From a virus, in the IMG/VR virus record IMGVR_UViG_3300012953_000015, positions 32,001 through 96,000 of that record: a stretch of 64,000 nt of DNA. The stretch is one strand, 5' to 3'. Under the pieces are notes generated by a model. That model made no database searches. It was not told where the DNA came from and saw nothing but the letters and a program-made list of their open reading frames with translations. Positions 31,554 through 39,601 of the stretch are shown here, one piece after another. The number at the start of each line of letters is the position of its first letter. The stretch's first letter is position 1. Made by a program: the position numbers and the translations under genes.

Positions 31554-33164
31554 ATGTCAAATAATTTATATGCAGAAGCTATTGCCGAAGCTAAACAGCT
31601 AAGAGAGATGGCAGAGCAAAATGCAAAAAACAAAATAATAGAGGCAGTTACCCCAAGAATTAAGGCTCTTATAGAGGCTCAAATCATGGGCGAACAAGAT
31701 GAACCTTCGGATGATGACGTTACAGGCGTTGACATTGCGATGATGTCTGATGATACAGAAGCAGAAGAAGATTCTCTTGAGTTGCCTACTGATGAACTTA
31801 TACAACCTGATGAACTCGAAAGCGAGACGGAATCTGAAAATACGTCCGTGGTAGTTAATGCATCAGGCGATGTTAATATATCCGTTGCTGAAGGTCGTGG
31901 TGTAAATCACGGATTGAGCAAAAATACTCGTTCAACCACGCTGTCTGGCAAAGTAAATCTTACAGAAAATATAAATTCGGTAAGACGTCGGGCGAAAAGG
32001 ATGGATGCTATGCTTCAAGGCCTCCAGTTCAATAAGCTAAACGAAATGCAACGGAAACTGATAAAAAAAGCATATCAGGAATTGCTTTCTGAAGCTTTGT
32101 TGATGAAGAGGCTGCTCCTAAAGGAGGGAGCAGAAGACCAATTGACTACTTCTTATAAACAAATGATAAAGGAGATTAAGAACATGACAAGAAGAAGCAG
32201 TACCATCTTCCGCCGACTATTTGAAATCGATGAAATGGCAGATGAGATGGACAAAGACGAATTAGACATGGCCGATGATGAAGGAGCCATGAGAGAAGAA
32301 GATGAAGAGGGTGGAGACGAAGCTGGTGGAGACGTTGATGTCGATGCTGCTAGTTCTGCTCTTGAAGACCTAGGTTCAGCATTAGGGCTTGACGTTGAGA
32401 TCGAAGAAGGTGGAGACGACGAGGGTGATGATGAAGGCGATGACGAAGAAGAAATCGACCTAGGTGAATACGATGAAACTTCGCATGATGAGGAAGACGA
32501 AGGCGCTATGCGTGAGTCTGATGAAGATGACGAAGAAGATGAGATGAAAGAAGCTGATGAAGTTTTTGAAATTGACGAAGGTATCCTTCGACGCGAGATC
32601 AAGAGACTTCGACGACTTCGAGAAGCTGAAGGCGTAGACGCAGCCGCACTTGATGATTTCGGTGGTGGTGATGCTGAAGGCGACATGTTCGTTGACGTTG
32701 ATGAGGATGACCTGATTAATGCTCTTGCTGATGAACTTGGCGATGCACCAGTTCCAACAGTCGAATCACGCCGTCGCAGAAGGGCTACTCGCCGCGCAAC
32801 AGCTCAGAACAGAAAATTACAGAATGAGAATAGAAAGTTGAAGAAGCAGCTTTCTGAGATGAACCTTTTTAACGCAAAGCTTTTATATGTGAATAAGTTG
32901 ATGCAGAATCGTAATGTGACACAAAAGCAACAGCGTGCCATTGTCGAGGCGCTTGATAATGCCAAGACCATTAGAGAGGCCAAGTTCCTTTATCAGGGGC
33001 TAGCCAAGTCTTTAGTTAAGCGTACTACTCGTACTATGAACGAGTCAGCAAACAGTCGTAAATTGCTTTCTTCAGCTAGCAAGTCTACTCGAAGCGGCTC
33101 CGCCGCTATCAATGAGGATACAGTCGCTGCAAGATGGGCAACCTTGGCTGGCATTAGAAAATAA
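31554..33164 (+). CDS. Prohead scaffold/core protein (T4 gp22 analogue)
   Basis: Immediately upstream of the capsid gene; coiled coils, long D/E tract, many hydrophobic-x-E sites; C-terminal RWATLAGI. Confidence 0.8.
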   Translation: MSNNLYAEAIAEAKQLREMAEQNAKNKIIEAVTPRIKALIEAQIMGEQDEPSDDDVTGVDIAMMSDDTEAEEDSLELPTDELIQPDELESETESENTSVVVNASGDVNISVAEGRGVNHGLSKNTRSTTLSGKVNLTENINSVRRRAKRMDAMLQGLQFNKLNEMQRKLIKKAYQELLSEALLMKRLLLKEGAEDQLTTSYKQMIKEIKNMTRRSSTIFRRLFEIDEMADEMDKDELDMADDEGAMREEDEEGGDEAGGDVDVDAASSALEDLGSALGLDVEIEEGGDDEGDDEGDDEEEIDLGEYDETSHDEEDEGAMRESDEDDEEDEMKEADEVFEIDEGILRREIKRLRRLREAEGVDAAALDDFGGGDAEGDMFVDVDEDDLINALADELGDAPVPTVESRRRRRATRRATAQNRKLQNENRKLKKQLSEMNLFNAKLLYVNKLMQNRNVTQKQQRAIVEALDNAKTIREAKFLYQGLAKSLVKRTTRTMNESANSRKLLSSASKSTRSGSAAINEDTVAARWATLAGIRK

Positions 33165-33194: not shown

Positions 33195-35168
33195 ATGAGT
33201 TTTTCATTAAGTCAGTTGACGGAAGGTATCAAGGCACGTAATGTTGGCCAGGGTAACCGTCGACTGTTAGAAAAGTGGGGTCGTACTGGCCTCCTTCGCG
33301 GCCTCGAAGGCACACATCGCGAAAACATGGCCACCCTCCTGGAAAACCAGGCTGGGCAGGTCCTTCGAGAGGCTTCATCTCTCGGTGGTGACGGCGCTGG
33401 ATCTGATATCCGTGGTTTCACCAACATCGCATTCCCAATCGTTCGTCGTGTATTCGGTGGATTGATTGCTAACGAGCTTGTGTCAATCCAGCCGATGAGC
33501 CTTCCTTCTGGTCTGCTCTTCTACCTCGATTACACATACGGTACCGACGTCGGTGGTGACATCGGAACATCTGAGGCTGCATACAGCAAGGGTGATTCGA
33601 TCTACGGTTCACCTGTTAACCCGGGTCGTGGCAACGATGGCGCTGACGCTGTAGGCGGTCAGTATGACTTAGCTGGTACTGGTTATTCAAAGGCACGAGT
33701 TGAAAAGGAAGCAGTTCAGCTTCCAGAAACAGCTCTTAACGCGGGTGGTGGTACTCAGCAGGCTGCTGCATTACTCAAGCTTGGTGCTTTTGGAGCTAAT
33801 GATGCATGGTCAGGTAAGCCTACTGGTGCCAATAAGCCAGCTCTTTTGACGGCTTCTGGTCAGGACTTACGTCTCGTAGACTTCGATCCACAGATTATCG
33901 CTGAGATTGAAGCTGGCGAAGAGTATGCTGCTCTTTTTATCCCATGGTCAACAGGAAACTTTCCTAACTTTGACGCAAGACAGGTTAAAGAGATTACCAT
34001 CAACGCAACTCAGGTTACCGGTTTCGGTGCAGTTCCTGCAACAATCCAGGGTGGTTCTGCAGTTGCTAACGTTAAGCGTTTGAACAGGATTGTCAAGTCT
34101 GATGCAAATGCCGCTCCATTTTCTGGTAAGTCGAGTGCACCAGCAACTGAAGGTGCAGCCGGTCCTATCGATATGGCAGCCGCCGCAGCTACTCACTTCT
34201 TGCTCATGGTCGTTAAGATCAGCGGTACAGTTGCTAATAACCAGCTCACATCTGCTGATACAGCAGCAACTGTCTCGGTTATAGACGTCAGTGGTGTTAA
34301 GGGAGCTACTACAAGCGCTGATGACCTTTCAACAGTTGTTTCACCAGCTTTTGAGTCAGACTTCGCAATCGATGCTGGTGACATTCCAGAGATTGACATC
34401 AAGATTGAGTCAGTATCTGTTGTTGCTCAGACCCGTAAGTTACGCGCTAAGTGGTCACCAGAACTCGCACAGGACTTGAATGCATACCACAGCCTTGACG
34501 CTGAGGTTGAGCTTACTCAGATTCTTTCTGAGCAGGTTGCACTCGAGATTGACCGTGAGATTCTTGGAGACCTTCTCGGAGAGGCTGGCGCAGCTAACTT
34601 CTTCTGGAGCCGTTCACCTGGTAACTTCGTTAACAAGAGAACTGGTGCTGCTATTTCTCGTGGTTCTTCACTTCGCCCTGGACCAGCTTTCACTGGTACA
34701 GTTCGTGAGTGGTATGAGACTCTCGTTGAGACCATCATCGATGTTTCCAATGAGATTCACAGAAAGACGCTCCGTGGTTCTGGTAACTTCATGGTTGTTA
34801 GCCCTGAGGTTGCTACCGTTCTTGAAGCTAGCGTTCTTTACAAGCCAGCTCTTTCCCTCGATGGTGAAGGCCAGGTTGCAATGCCAATGGCTCTTGGAGC
34901 TGAGAAGGTTGGTACCCTTTCAAGCCGTTTCACGGTTTACAAGGACCCATACTTTCCTCGTAACAAGATCCTTGTTGGATTCAAGGGCAGCAGCTACTTA
35001 GAGACAGGATATGTTTACGCTCCGTACGTACCATTGATCGTCACTCCAACTATTTTTGCTCCAGAGGATTTCACCCCAAGAAAGGGTGTCATGACTCGTT
35101 ACGGTAAGAAGATGGTTCGTGCTGACTTCTACGGTACTGTTACATGCTTAGACATGGACATTATCTAA
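33195..35168 (+). CDS. Major capsid protein (T4 gp23-like) with large insertion
   Basis: PIVRRVF...IQPMSLPSGLLFYL, TRKLRAKWSPELAQDLNAYH, EIDREI, GYVYAPYVPL, PRKGVMTRYG; codon bias typical of a highly expressed gene. Confidence 0.97.
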   Translation: MSFSLSQLTEGIKARNVGQGNRRLLEKWGRTGLLRGLEGTHRENMATLLENQAGQVLREASSLGGDGAGSDIRGFTNIAFPIVRRVFGGLIANELVSIQPMSLPSGLLFYLDYTYGTDVGGDIGTSEAAYSKGDSIYGSPVNPGRGNDGADAVGGQYDLAGTGYSKARVEKEAVQLPETALNAGGGTQQAAALLKLGAFGANDAWSGKPTGANKPALLTASGQDLRLVDFDPQIIAEIEAGEEYAALFIPWSTGNFPNFDARQVKEITINATQVTGFGAVPATIQGGSAVANVKRLNRIVKSDANAAPFSGKSSAPATEGAAGPIDMAAAAATHFLLMVVKISGTVANNQLTSADTAATVSVIDVSGVKGATTSADDLSTVVSPAFESDFAIDAGDIPEIDIKIESVSVVAQTRKLRAKWSPELAQDLNAYHSLDAEVELTQILSEQVALEIDREILGDLLGEAGAANFFWSRSPGNFVNKRTGAAISRGSSLRPGPAFTGTVREWYETLVETIIDVSNEIHRKTLRGSGNFMVVSPEVATVLEASVLYKPALSLDGEGQVAMPMALGAEKVGTLSSRFTVYKDPYFPRNKILVGFKGSSYLETGYVYAPYVPLIVTPTIFAPEDFTPRKGVMTRYGKKMVRADFYGTVTCLDMDII

Positions 35169-35279: not shown

Positions 35280-36842
35280 ATGAAACTCACTGAACTCTAC
35301 GGATACAAACCTCGAAAGAATAATAAGTTAAAAGAAAACAAAAAGCGCCTTAGCTTAGTTAATTTGCTATTTGAAGACGAATCTTTGAAGAAGCAAATCA
35401 AAGCTGTTGATGCTAAGCCAATTACGCTTGTTGTTCTTTACGGCCCTCCTGCTGCCGGTAAAGGAGCTGCTAAGAAAGCTATTGGCGACTTTATTGGATC
35501 AAATGACGAGCAAAATTTTGAAGACTATCTAGACACCCTCACCGATGACGGCGCTTCGCAATTTCAAGAAGAAGATGCCGCAATGACTGATGTCACTAGC
35601 AAAGCTTTAGCTCCCGCAGTTTATAATGAGATTGAAGCAAGAGTCGACAAAGGCGAGTCTTTCGAAGACGTTATTGGTGATTATTTCCATGTTAACGAAA
35701 AGGGAGTTAAGTTTGAACTTAGTTCTATTCTCAGTAAGTCAGCTTTCGAAAAGATCAAAGATGGAGGTGGTTCAGACGAGTTTGCTAAATTCCCAAACAC
35801 AAAAGCATTCTTTACGCAAGCTCGCGGGTTCTCAAAGACCATCGACGGTTTAAGCGATGACATCAATAAGATGCTCGGACCAAATGATGGTAACCCGACT
35901 TTAGGCTTGAGAGCTGGCGCTGCCGCTCGCTACCTTGGGGATATCAAGAAAGAAATGATGTCGATGATGTCTGGCGTTAAAGAAGTTGGTTCAACTGCTT
36001 ACGCTAGCGTCTATCTTGCTGATCAAGCAGGAGAGTCAACAGCAAATACAGATCGAATATCACAGCTTGGCAAATTAAAGGGTGATGAAGATTTTGCAGG
36101 TTTAAAGATCATTGGTATCTATATCCATCAACCAGCTGACAGAACTCGTATAGCAAACCTCCACAGAGCCTCAACAGGTGGCCGACGAGTAGCTCAATCA
36201 GAAGTTGACCGCATCTTTGCCGCTAGTCCTGAAATTGATGCTAATGGAAACATTACTAAAAAAGGCCCGGCACTTGAAGCCATGGAATCAGCTGGATTTG
36301 ATCAAATCCACTTATACTATCCACCTAATCCGTTTGATCCCGAAGGTGTTAAAGTTGATGGCCAAGAAATCGGTAACGCGATTTGCGAGCCACTTGGTTC
36401 TGGAAAAGGTCATTTAGACATTGAGGGCTGCGAAGATGAAGCGGATGGGCCAAAAACAGGCGCGCGGTCCCTTGCCGGTATGGAAAAATACGCAGCAAAG
36501 AGAGCTAACGTAGATGACGAACGAGTTGAGAAAGCTGGTGGTGGTTTACCTGATGATCTTTCTAACGAAGAAAAAGAGAAAGTTGTTGCCGCATTTGAGA
36601 AGATGAAGTTTAGTGGAGTATCTGTAGCCGATTTAGATAAATACATGAGCAAGATTAAACCACCAAAGATTCGTGGAGCAACGAAGCATGGTCAAGTCCC
36701 ATGGAAAGATGATCTTTTTGGTGATGGCACCAACCCAACCGAAAAAGTGACAATAAAAGATGAGTCAGCTAGAACTCGTAAGACAAAAGGCGATGTTCTC
36801 CTCGAACGTTGGTTGAAGAACGCTGGTCTATTAAACGATTAA
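35280..36842 (+). CDS. P-loop kinase-like protein (Zeta-toxin/AAA_33-like), putatively head-packaged
   Basis: LVVLYGPPAAGKG Walker A; IYIHQP...NLHRASTGGRRVAQSEV lid-like motif; terminal extensions resemble head-protein motifs. Confidence 0.65.
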   Translation: MKLTELYGYKPRKNNKLKENKKRLSLVNLLFEDESLKKQIKAVDAKPITLVVLYGPPAAGKGAAKKAIGDFIGSNDEQNFEDYLDTLTDDGASQFQEEDAAMTDVTSKALAPAVYNEIEARVDKGESFEDVIGDYFHVNEKGVKFELSSILSKSAFEKIKDGGGSDEFAKFPNTKAFFTQARGFSKTIDGLSDDINKMLGPNDGNPTLGLRAGAAARYLGDIKKEMMSMMSGVKEVGSTAYASVYLADQAGESTANTDRISQLGKLKGDEDFAGLKIIGIYIHQPADRTRIANLHRASTGGRRVAQSEVDRIFAASPEIDANGNITKKGPALEAMESAGFDQIHLYYPPNPFDPEGVKVDGQEIGNAICEPLGSGKGHLDIEGCEDEADGPKTGARSLAGMEKYAAKRANVDDERVEKAGGGLPDDLSNEEKEKVVAAFEKMKFSGVSVADLDKYMSKIKPPKIRGATKHGQVPWKDDLFGDGTNPTEKVTIKDESARTRKTKGDVLLERWLKNAGLLND

Positions 36843-36899: not shown

Positions 36900-37196
36900 A
36901 TGGCTACAACAAGGACAAAAAAAACAGCTGGAGCTTCAAAGCCAGCTGCGACGAAGACTGCTGCTAAACCAGCCCCGGCAAAGAATGCTGAATTAGACAA
37001 ACTCTCAAAGAGGGTTACTCAACTTGAAAAGCAAGTTGCAGCCCTAGAATCAGCCCCAGCCCCAGTTGCAACCGACAAGGGTTTAAGGCAAGAATTAGTA
37101 AACTTGCGTAATCAATTTCAGCAAGTTGCCACTATATTGCATGAACAAACCGACTCAAGGGTTGTTTCGAAATTAATAAGGCGCCTTTTTCAGTAG
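36900..37196 (+). CDS. Small protein with Lys/Ala/Thr-rich basic N-terminus and coiled coil
   Basis: ATTRTKKTAGASKPAATKTAAKPAPAK followed by heptad repeats; GAGGAG SD. Confidence 0.65.
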   Translation: MATTRTKKTAGASKPAATKTAAKPAPAKNAELDKLSKRVTQLEKQVAALESAPAPVATDKGLRQELVNLRNQFQQVATILHEQTDSRVVSKLIRRLFQ

Positions 37197-37224: not shown

Positions 37225-37231
37225 ATAATTA
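37225..37231 (+). promoter_or_regulatory. Putative late promoter motif for leader RNA copy 1
   Basis: ATAATTA within the duplicated block GTAAATTCAAT...TCTATAATTATTA. Confidence 0.6.
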
Positions 37232-37236
37232 TTAAC

Positions 37237-37309
37237 AGGCCCGGTCCATTATAATCACTTGACACCCACGAGGGATCGGAATCATTGGGAGCAAAGGAGA
37301 AAGATTATG
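37237..37309 (+). ncRNA. Structured 5' leader RNA, copy 1 (predicted nested double pseudoknot)
   Basis: Four helices covary with copy 2: 37241-47/37273-79, 37252-56/37303-07, 37258-61/37269-72 and 37265-68/37286-89. Confidence 0.8.
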
Positions 37310-37885
37310 CCAAAAGTAACGCTTACTGCCGCGAAAGGACTTGTGCAAGAGACAGGTAGCGGCACAATTTCAACCCCTATGGGGATTATCGCACCGCAAC
37401 TAAATAAGACAGCTGTTGCCGGTGGAGGTGCTTTCGCCCCCTTGGCGCTTGTAGCAAATACTCACTACTTGGTAGGAGGCTCACTAAATAACTCAGCACT
37501 CACTGTACCCGCTGGTTCCCCAGGAGACGTTATTATTATTGAGCACACAACCGAAACCGCTGGTGAGCTTACAGTTGCTAACGGGCAAGCTGTTTCTATA
37601 ACTTGCGATGCATCTCAAGTTTCTTTTTCTGCGAACAGTTCTCTAAAAGCGATCGTAACCGCTGCGACAAACGGAGCTGCTCTTCTTGGCATGGCTCTTG
37701 ATGCTATCACTGCGAATGGCACCAACGACAATGTTTTAACCTTGACCGGTGCCACCAATGCCGGTCCTGGAATGGGTACTTACATTTGTTTGACAAGAGA
37801 GGCGACTCTTTGGCGTATTGAGGGTTGGATCTGGGGCTCAGGCGCTCAGACCGGTAACGCACTTGCAACGGCTGCATTTAGCTGA
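37307..37885 (+). CDS. Decoration/head-fibre-like protein, paralogue 1
   Basis: Start moved to ATG 37307 (AGGAG SD at 37295-99); N-terminus MPKVTLTAAKGLVQETGSG is shared with the next two genes; Gly/Ala/Thr-rich. Confidence 0.6.
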   Translation: MPKVTLTAAKGLVQETGSGTISTPMGIIAPQLNKTAVAGGGAFAPLALVANTHYLVGGSLNNSALTVPAGSPGDVIIIEHTTETAGELTVANGQAVSITCDASQVSFSANSSLKAIVTAATNGAALLGMALDAITANGTNDNVLTLTGATNAGPGMGTYICLTREATLWRIEGWIWGSGAQTGNALATAAFS

Positions 37886-37910
37886 TACCTAAAATAAGAC
37901 AAACTTTGTT

Positions 37911-37937
37911 AAACCGCGCCTAGACGGCGCGGTTTTT
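37911..37937 (+). terminator. Rho-independent terminator
   Basis: AAACCGCGCC-TAGAC-GGCGCGGTTTTT. Confidence 0.85.
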
Positions 37938-37963
37938 ATTTATTGTAAATTCAATATTTATCT

Positions 37964-37970
37964 ATAATTA
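37964..37970 (+). promoter_or_regulatory. Putative late promoter motif for leader RNA copy 2
   Basis: ATAATTA at the same offset (+739) as in copy 1. Confidence 0.6.
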
Positions 37971-37975
37971 TTAGT

Positions 37976-38048
37976 AGGCCCGCATCATTTTGATCAGCTG
38001 ACCCTGCCAGCGATGTGGAATCTTGCAGACAAAAGGAGAAAGATCATG
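37976..38048 (+). ncRNA. Structured 5' leader RNA, copy 2
   Basis: Helices 37980-86/38012-18, 37991-95/38042-46, 37997-38000/38008-11 and 38004-07/38025-28. Confidence 0.8.
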
Positions 38049-38441
38049 CCAAACGTAACTTATAGCGGTACACAGGGTATCGTTCAATCATCAGGTACTG
38101 GCGGTTTTACCGTTCAGGGAGTCGGGATCGCACTCGACGTTGAAACAATCACAGGCATTGCTGACGACAATACCACACTCAAGGCTTACGGAGTTTCTAA
38201 GGTTGCAACCGACAACAACGGTAACCGAGAAGTAACCGTTGAGAATCCAGTTGATGTAACTGGTGCAGCCGGCCAGACAAAGCTAATCGTTAAGACAGAC
38301 GGTAACAACGAGGTTGCAGTCAGGTCAGTTGCAACTAACGCAGCCGGCTTGGTTGGTGACAGCCTTAACAACGCTAACGATTATATCTTGTTGATGTGGA
38401 CTGGAACTGACTGGGTTTGCGTAGCGGATGCAACAGCATAA
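38046..38441 (+). CDS. Decoration/head-fibre-like protein, paralogue 2
   Basis: Start moved to ATG 38046 (AGGAG SD); N-terminus MPNVTYSGTQGIVQSSGTG; C-terminal DYILLMWTGTDWV. Confidence 0.6.
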   Translation: MPNVTYSGTQGIVQSSGTGGFTVQGVGIALDVETITGIADDNTTLKAYGVSKVATDNNGNREVTVENPVDVTGAAGQTKLIVKTDGNNEVAVRSVATNAAGLVGDSLNNANDYILLMWTGTDWVCVADATA

Positions 38442-38458
38442 TAGGAGGTAAAGATTAA

Positions 38459-39601
38459 ATGGCTATTCAAGCAAAATATACTCCTACAGCAGGACTACAA
38501 CAAAATAAAGTTGTTGGTAAAATGACAGGTACTTTAGATCTTACCGCTGATGTTGTTTTAACAAATACGGGATTTGGAGAGGAAGCAAAAACTTTTACTT
38601 TGGAAGTAATTGCAGATGCTGCTAACCCGGGTGCCACAGTATTGGCAGCTTTTACCGGTACTCAATCTGCTGTTATTTTAACCATTACCCCAAACAATGG
38701 CGATAACAACGGAAACACTGACGTTGATCTCACAACAGCCCAAATTGCTGAGCTTATTAACTACGGATCAGTTGATGGCGTGGATGTAACATTAACAGAT
38801 GACTTGGGATTGAGAACTTTGCAAAGTGCAGAGGGCGGTGGAGCTCAGCCGGTTGTAAATGCTGGTGAGGGCGATAGCGTAACTGCAACATTTTCTGGCA
38901 CTCACTTAACAGAATTTCATGTTTCAGGTGTTGGAGTCTCGTCAGACCTTGAGACAGTAACCGCGCAGCGAGTAACAATTCAAGCTGTTGCTTCTAATGA
39001 CAATGCTGCAGGAACTTCTTTTCGCCTTACTAACGGTGATGGAGTTGAAACAAGGTTTTTCGTACAGATAGCTGGCGCTCCTGCTCTACCATCTGGTCAT
39101 GTAGCTTTAAATGAGGATGCTGGTGAAAACGTAGCAAATACTGCCACAACTTTGGCGGGTCAAATTAATGCAGTATCAGGTTTCTCAGCTTCTGCTGATG
39201 GAGGCGGATTAATTACTGTTATAAATGATAAGACTGGAGTTTCAGCTCTACCTGTTCAAGGAACATCAACGCTAGTTATATCTGTAACAAAAGCAGGCTC
39301 TGGCACCAATGGTGGAGTTATTAAAACAACCGGCGTTACTATCATCGATGCTATCGCTAATACTGAAATGACTTTAGGGGATTTGACAGCTGCTCAAATT
39401 GGTACAATGAAGTTGATTAAGAGGGCTACTGCTGCTCAAGCAGGAGCTAACGCTGATGTAACGATTGCATCTCACGACGGTGGTGCCGCCGAAGAGAAGC
39501 GTTTTGGAGATGGTCAGCAAGCAACTTTGATCTGGCTAGGCACTCAATGGGCGGATATTGCTCGAGCTGGAGCAAATAGAAATTCTGCTACCGAACCTTA
39601 A
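38459..39601 (+). CDS. Decoration/head-fibre-like protein, paralogue 3 with two inserted domains
   Basis: AKYTPTAGLQQ start, FHVSGVGVSSDLETVT, QIGTMKLIK and ATLIWLGTQW align with paralogue 2. Confidence 0.6.
   Translation: MAIQAKYTPTAGLQQNKVVGKMTGTLDLTADVVLTNTGFGEEAKTFTLEVIADAANPGATVLAAFTGTQSAVILTITPNNGDNNGNTDVDLTTAQIAELINYGSVDGVDVTLTDDLGLRTLQSAEGGGAQPVVNAGEGDSVTATFSGTHLTEFHVSGVGVSSDLETVTAQRVTIQAVASNDNAAGTSFRLTNGDGVETRFFVQIAGAPALPSGHVALNEDAGENVANTATTLAGQINAVSGFSASADGGGLITVINDKTGVSALPVQGTSTLVISVTKAGSGTNGGVIKTTGVTIIDAIANTEMTLGDLTAAQIGTMKLIKRATAAQAGANADVTIASHDGGAAEEKRFGDGQQATLIWLGTQWADIARAGANRNSATEP

Follow-up and report, generated by a model that had tools for sequence, protein, structure and literature searches.

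In an uncultured T4-like phage, two consecutive genes downstream of the capsid gene begin with leaders that look alike, and the locus raises the question of whether these leaders are structured RNAs and what they do to the genes behind them. The window, i.e. the whole stretch of 64,000 nucleotides that was analysed, runs from base 32001 to base 96000 of a virus record of 143 kb. Its major capsid protein (33195-35168) is of the Gp23 type and is 45-48% identical to its nearest relatives in deposited phages, namely an uncultured phage, Flavobacterium phage immuto and Microcystis phage Mel-JY01, and the assignment of the source to an uncultured T4-like phage follows from this protein. The leader cassettes come after the capsid gene and before the neck gene (39672, which matches a head-tail adaptor); all their features given below lie on the plus strand. 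Searches of the genome for RegA and sigma-70 region 2 gave no match, which says little given that the record is about 52% complete.

Two other proteins are encoded upstream of the cassettes. A 520-aa P-loop protein (35280-36842), immediately 3' of the capsid gene, has its own late motif and is without Pfam or PHROG match, and a small protein (36900-37196) combines a lysine/threonine-rich N-terminus with a coiled coil.

The two leader copies

Copy 1 of the leader occupies 37237..37309 and copy 2 37976..38048. They align without gaps at an offset of 739, as claimed in an earlier sequence-only reading of this DNA, and its count of 25 differences over 73 nt, 20 of them within the 40 paired positions, was reproduced base for base. 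All 20 pairs are canonical in both copies; nine have changed on both sides, two on one side only (wobble), and none is broken. The strands of P1 (37241-37247/37273-37279 and 37980-37986/38012-38018) are CCGGUCC/GGAUCGG in copy 1 and CCGCAUC/GAUGUGG in copy 2, those of P3 (37258-37261/37269-37272 and 37997-38000/38008-38011) CUUG/CGAG and GCUG/CAGC, and those of the loop pseudoknot (37265-37268/37286-37289 and 38004-38007/38025-38028) CCCA/UGGG and CUGC/GCAG, all in agreement with that reading. The pairs given there for P2, UAAUC/GAUUA and UGAUC/GAUCA, hold as well, but in copy 1 (37250-37256/37303-37309) the helix is really 7 bp long and covers the whole AUG, while in copy 2 (37991-37995/38042-38046) it includes the A of AUG. 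The 5' tetramer of copy 1 lies at 37237-37240, the conserved junctions at 37280-37285 and 38019-38024, and the SD at 37295-37299 and 38034-38038. TATAAT in copy 1 was considered as a promoter signal and rejected; these bases form the P2 strand and vary together with the strand opposite.

Preservation of all pairs is hard to attribute to chance. With 20 random substitutions among paired positions, none of 2,000,000 trials kept 19 or 20 pairs, and with the changed positions fixed and only the new bases randomised, p was 5.6e-5. By itself, a loose four-helix descriptor fits about 130 sites in this AT-rich genome and is thus non-specific, so the evidence is covariation, not the mere possibility of pairing. 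On its own 143-kb record, a covariance model found copies 1 and 2 only (72.8 and 76.5 bits, both being members of the training set).

Copy 1 precedes a 192-aa gene (37307..37885) and copy 2 a 131-aa gene (38046..38441), and an intrinsic-terminator-like hairpin with a T-rich run (37911..37945) separates the two cassettes. A third gene of 380 aa (38459..39601), probably co-transcribed behind copy 2, follows the 131-aa gene after a 17-nt gap and has its own SD. Its SD-AUG spacer (38453-38457) looks like the 3' strand of P2 and could, with one wobble, form a helix with the 5' strand of P2 in copy 2; it is probably a duplication relic.

The leader had been called duplicated, which is true of the gapless alignment but not in the sense of one recently diverged duplicate. 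Of the 42 core positions, 22 differ between the two RNAs, yet each has 1-4 differences from relatives in other phages; since each is nearer to the copies of other phages, two subtypes stand side by side. About 30 nt upstream are nearly identical between copies 1 and 2, and the relative L001 has a single cassette only. The cassette looks exchangeable, and the closeness of the leader subtypes to other phages, together with the single cassette of L001, indicates that leaders and gene bodies are shuffled as modules.

A covarying RNA family

Relatives of the leader were gathered by sequence patterns fixing only some conserved bases. The patterns matched 31, 71 and more than 119 viral stretches and more than 120 metagenomic stretches, and 195 distinct cores were found in viral and metagenomic contigs; kinship among contigs inflates all these counts, there being about 36 effective sequences at 90% identity. 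Searches without imposed pairing still recover intact P1, P3 and loop pseudoknot. In an alignment of 62 sequences, 97.5% of 930 cells are paired, as against 21-37% in slid registers, and two-sided change is seen in 12 of the 15 pairs. Most pairs show at least three pair types. The covariation first noticed between two copies therefore extends to further homologues, in which the helices are kept and the predicted pairs top the mutual-information ranking; the same ranking gave no additional canonical helix. A separate subtype (L033 2907-3003 and 15 relatives) carries one extra base on each side of P3, a long SD loop and a G-A apposition that closes the P3 loop.

A GTDB scan yielded eight matches in cellular contigs, none with the pairings, and these are therefore chance matches. 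Viral matches to the corresponding pattern serve as a natural control: nearly all of them pair at 6-7, 4 and 4 positions. The GTDB pattern covers one subtype only, so that absence from cells is not proven by it. Rfam 15 gave no gathering-score match in the window, none to E 10 over either core and none to E 5 over leaders in ten other loci, in line with the novelty proposed for both copies. By covariance model, no leader was found near the capsid genes of Flavobacterium phage immuto or LR756508, and neither the leader RNA nor the 131-aa protein was found in cultured phages. The literature that could be searched yielded no description; the 10,006 candidate viral RNAs of PMC10690425 may include it as an unannotated entry. 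On the strength of these sequence comparisons, we regard the RNA as a well-supported, structured and uncatalogued phage family.

P2 and the initiation region

Among 114 members, P2 has at least five consecutive pairs in 106, covering the whole AUG in 77 of these, part of the AUG in 19 and the SD-AUG spacer in 10; it takes in the A of AUG or more in 96. More than 12 sequence versions of P2 occur. Cognate strands average 5.64 bp, compared with 4.92 +/- 0.06 for swapped partners and 2.5 bp for coding sequence. The loop before the P2 3' strand varies between 10 and 40 nt and carries the SD, and P2 stays on the initiation region. The SD core lies outside P2 in 105 of 111 members at the normal spacing of 5-10 nt, and P2 adjoins P3 with a gap of 0-2 nt in 110 of 111. 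This survey bears out the original observation that the leader closes on the start codon of virion spike or decoration-like genes.

P2 and P3 alone amount to +1.0 and -4.7 kcal/mol, P1 and P3 to -10.8 and -12.5. P2 is thus weak without the rest of the fold, and as far as pairing and energies can tell, this layout is that of an expression platform resting on a stable core.

Genes linked to the leader

The two downstream genes had been described as paralogous. Their products do share about 19 N-terminal residues (BLASTP E 2e-4), but neither BLASTP nor profile-profile comparison (probability 0.13%) extends the similarity beyond them, which limits the term to an N-terminal anchor, MPKV..KGLVQ. The 192-aa protein has no Pfam or PHROG match; it has 13 metagenomic homologues, its Atlas neighbours are viral hypothetical proteins, and it is probably a virion accessory protein. 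For the 131-aa protein, a model (pLDDT 73.8) shows a low-confidence N-terminal arm, with the anchor taking up about 25 aa, and a beta-sandwich resembling the N-terminal domain of tailspike TSP4, T4 gp9/gp10 and the Pa223 capsid spike (Foldseek E 1e-4 to 7rej and 7e-4 to 9ny6; VIA to 7rej Z 10.8, rmsd 2.8, 95 aligned). Since the sandwich matches tailspike and capsid-spike domains, the modelled fold supports a virion accessory role; it does not imply a position in the particle. The C-terminal domain encoded by the third gene resembles the 131-aa protein (HHalign probability 78.9%, E 1.6e-5). The third gene thus shares the sandwich with the 131-aa protein, and the 192-aa protein shares only the arm.

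Linkage between leader and anchor gene is evident from both sides. When the protein N-terminus MPKV..KGLVQ was the query, the leader was found to head the operon in 39 of 50 new loci. The remaining 11 comprise three false matches, four loci cut by the locus end and four without leader, so that by covariance model the leader is at the operon head in 39 of 43 evaluable anchor-gene loci. When the element was the starting point, the anchor family followed 64 of 67 elements with full context, the next neighbour family only 10. In locus L277 (2101-3520), three tandem cassettes of terminator, promoter, leader and gene follow the capsid gene. Arrays of two or three such cassettes, each with an anchor gene, are also present in L108, L135 and L145. 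L202 and L215 have an intact leader in front of an anchor reading frame that is cut off by a stop after 20 codons.

A small lysine-rich protein is encoded by the first gene, ahead of the anchor gene, in about 11 of 114 members. Proteins of this type, similar to the one at 36900-37196, occur near 29 of 67 elements, where they flank or directly follow the leader. They were considered as the ligand and rejected, as they split into several clusters and accompany only these 29 elements.

The 5' end and the late promoter

A late-promoter-like motif, nTAnnTA, precedes many structural genes of the same genome. It had been noticed about 6 nt upstream of both copies; the motif is indeed there (37225..37231 and 37964..37970), but its distance to the first A is exactly 5 nt. 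The same spacing is found in 142 of 148 members, and the base just before the element is a pyrimidine in all 148. In T4, late promoters consist of nothing but a TATA box, placed roughly one helical turn before the start (PMC2988020). Given the fixed spacing, the first A of the element is probably transcription +1.

Conservation is pronounced at this end. Of 73 leaders parsed by pairing alone, upstream of independently found genes, 71 carry the 5' tetramer A-R-G-Y and the junction hexamer A-R-N-C-H-U, and the remaining two are mis-parses. The conservation is therefore not an artefact of the patterns. The first A and the third G could pair with the invariant junction U and C, bases that offer no variation for covariation, and such pairing would bring the 5' end to stack onto the inner pseudoknot. 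In energy-minimum folds the 5' bases pair with the Met-Pro codons, an arrangement that was rejected since it is lost in members whose gene begins Met-Ala.

Upstream of the anchor gene in L176 and L208, promoter motif and 5' tetramer are present at the usual spacing; the remaining leader looks decayed or replaced and gives no covariance-model match. In L171, the leader in front of the lysine-rich gene, some 1.4 kb before the anchor gene, has a late motif followed by a short GC-rich stretch with apparent complementarity. It is possibly a different structured leader.

A proposed translational operator

The sequence-only reading had suggested a cis-regulatory RNA that controls synthesis of a virion decoration protein, possibly by autogenous feedback. 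A real, uncatalogued, cis-acting structured leader stands; regulation, feedback and ligand are what we infer from it. With a probability of roughly 0.8, we take the leader to be a cis-acting translational operator that exerts control through P2 in some form. That unassembled spike protein represses its own synthesis via the leader is a narrower proposal, drawn by analogy, to which we give somewhat less than an even chance.

The operator could work as follows. Late transcription would start at the first A of the element, as the fixed spacing suggests. P1, P3 and the loop pseudoknot, helices attested by covariation, make a compact core. The short, weak A/U-rich strand between P1 and P3 pairs, again as covariation attests, with the start codon or the SD-AUG spacer, forming P2 next to P3 and leaving the SD in a loop. 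Being marginal, P2 might be locked once a ligand binds the conserved core; the 30S subunit would still meet the SD but could not place the AUG, comparable to entrapment at the E. coli S15 and S4 operators. In the last and most tentative step, the ligand might be the unassembled spike protein, bound through its conserved, lysine-containing N-terminal anchor, in which case synthesis would stop when the binding sites on the capsid are filled.

Repetition of the leader with each separately promoted gene copy, three times in L277, speaks for an operator. Several observations count against feedback by the spike protein: the modelled 131-aa fold is a tailspike-type beta-sandwich and not a known RNA-binding fold, and the bodies of anchor proteins vary widely. 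The four loci with an anchor gene and no recognisable leader, as well as the roughly 11 of 114 members with the lysine-rich gene first, count against it too. Either way, the leader probably limits the amount of virion spike protein made.

Alternatively, a fold that forms by itself, independently of any ligand, could attenuate translation and guard the 5' end by hiding the first nucleotides from RppH, RNase J or E. Ribosomes would load before P2 closes or while it breathes, so that a stable message yields a low, fixed output of a minor protein. The fixed start, the near-invariant tetramer and hexamer (recovered without sequence constraints) and the potential pairs of the first A and third G all suit such a guard, and pseudoknotted viral RNAs with 5'-end pairing do block bacterial RNase J1 (PMC5760640). 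We still hold this to be unlikely, since a plain hairpin over the AUG would be a simpler attenuator, the capsid message is without the element despite being far more abundant (there are only two copies in the 143-kb record) and the near-obligate tie to one protein family would be left unexplained.

The HDV-type double pseudoknot might also serve as a non-cleaving switch, in which release of the start codon is set by a small ligand or by 5'-end chemistry; this we consider decidedly unlikely. In such a switch the 5'-triphosphate end of the message would be stacked on the inner pseudoknot at the place of HDV G1, with a pocket of invariant bases around it. If true, the leader would represent a new phage-confined class of riboswitch or ribozyme.

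A riboswitch-like sensor, whose junction pocket would bind a small molecule or ion and thereby stabilise P2 and shut off translation, has the compact pseudoknot, the invariant unpaired bases and the weak, variable start-codon helix on its side. Switches of the SAM-II and preQ1-II type have the same layout, a compact pseudoknot with a weak helix at the start region. However, the genes concerned are structural and have no metabolic or signalling link, the GTDB pattern for one subtype found no cellular copy, and there is no similarity to Rfam riboswitches, which makes such a sensor improbable.

Could the leader enhance translation instead? The SD, unpaired in 105 of 111 and normally spaced, would be presented in a loop to recruit the 30S subunit, and P2 would be a positioning helix displaced by initiator tRNA. 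The commonest P2 strand is CAUAA, which is also contained in the anticodon loop of initiator tRNA. This strand, however, is merely complementary to the start region and varies along with it, in several variants the spacer alone is paired, and CAUAA stands outside any anticodon-like hairpin, so that an enhancer is very improbable.

At least as improbable is a ribozyme at the 5' end of the message, be it HDV-like self-cleavage or new chemistry. The analogy draws on the HDV-like strand order, the 7-bp P1, the 7-nt L3, a C within three bases after the pseudoknot in 68 of 73 leaders and the existence of theta ribozymes in phages (PMC10879173). We found the HDV-like strand order, a nested double pseudoknot, just as first described, yet four defining features of HDV-like ribozymes are missing, as the same reading had largely recognised. 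Instead of the purine G1, P1 opens with C in 114 of 114 members of a set that required C, and with C or U in the unconstrained set apart from the two mis-parses. The two-bp P1.1 directly after P1, which stacks P1-P1.1-P4 (defined as in PMC13635239), occurs in 0 of 114. In place of the U20-G25 pair in L3, the first loop base is A in 70 of the 71 correctly parsed leaders of the unconstrained set and never U, and the sixth base varies and covaries with the pseudoknot strand. Finally, an invariant catalytic C opening a short J4/2 is lacking; the equivalent of J4/2 is 10-40 nt long and the candidate C is absent in several members. A new self-cleaving ribozyme is further weakened by the promoter spacing, as the RNA appears to begin at the transcription start with nothing upstream to cut.

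A DNA-level repeat with chance pairings, be it a promoter or a recombination cassette, might be suspected from the exchangeable-looking cassette, the nearly identical 30 nt upstream and the single cassette of L001, but strand-specific G-U wobbles, four covarying helices and the contrast between unpaired cellular and nearly always paired viral matches have largely refuted it already.

Comparison with known systems

Few natural RNAs combine compactness with four covarying helices and invariant junction bases, and those that do often prove to be riboswitches, ribozymes or protein-binding switches. The leader is absent from Rfam and common in an abundant uncultured group of T4-like phages. It links an HDV-like fold to start-codon masking, and at a length of 70-95 nt its structure and function are directly testable. 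If autogenous, the operator would reveal how a large phage keeps the supply of a variable virion spike in step with its capsid.

With HDV-like ribozymes (PMC10879173, PMC13635239), of which theta ribozymes occur in phages (PMC10879173), the leader shares the strand order, the 7-bp P1, the 7-nt L3 and a P2 adjoining P3, and with their minimal forms the lack of P4. It differs in an inner pseudoknot of 4 covarying bp placed 6 nt after P1, where HDV has the 2-bp P1.1 directly after it. It is without the 5' purine of P1, U20 and the invariant catalytic C, begins at the apparent transcription start and holds its SD in the long, variable J4/2-equivalent (10-40 nt). An autogenous leader would also be one of the few RNAs that put an HDV-like topology to non-catalytic use. 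Like xrRNAs (PMC5760640), it is a pseudoknot whose 5'-terminal bases are conserved and may reach into a junction to pair there; unlike them, it has no three-way junction, lies at the start of an mRNA and not in a 3' UTR, and has a start-codon helix.

Closer parallels are found among autogenous operators. A structured 5' leader that overlaps the initiation region of the first gene is present here, as is consistent linkage to one possible repressor gene family (39 of 43 loci; 64 of 67 elements). The translational operator of T4 gene 32 (cited in PMC10690425) is likewise a pseudoknot in a phage 5' leader tied to one gene and under autogenous control. Like the leader, the S4-binding alpha-operon and S15-binding rpsO leaders of E. 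coli are pseudoknotted 5' leaders reaching into the initiation region; in the alpha leader, a double pseudoknot, the start codon is part of the fold, and both operators confer autogenous repression by ribosome entrapment (PMC3616713). The leader, in contrast, is a phage RNA with a different strand order, precedes a virion and not a ribosomal protein, and is similar to no Rfam family. By analogy, it works most plausibly like the S4 and S15 operators without being a member of their families.
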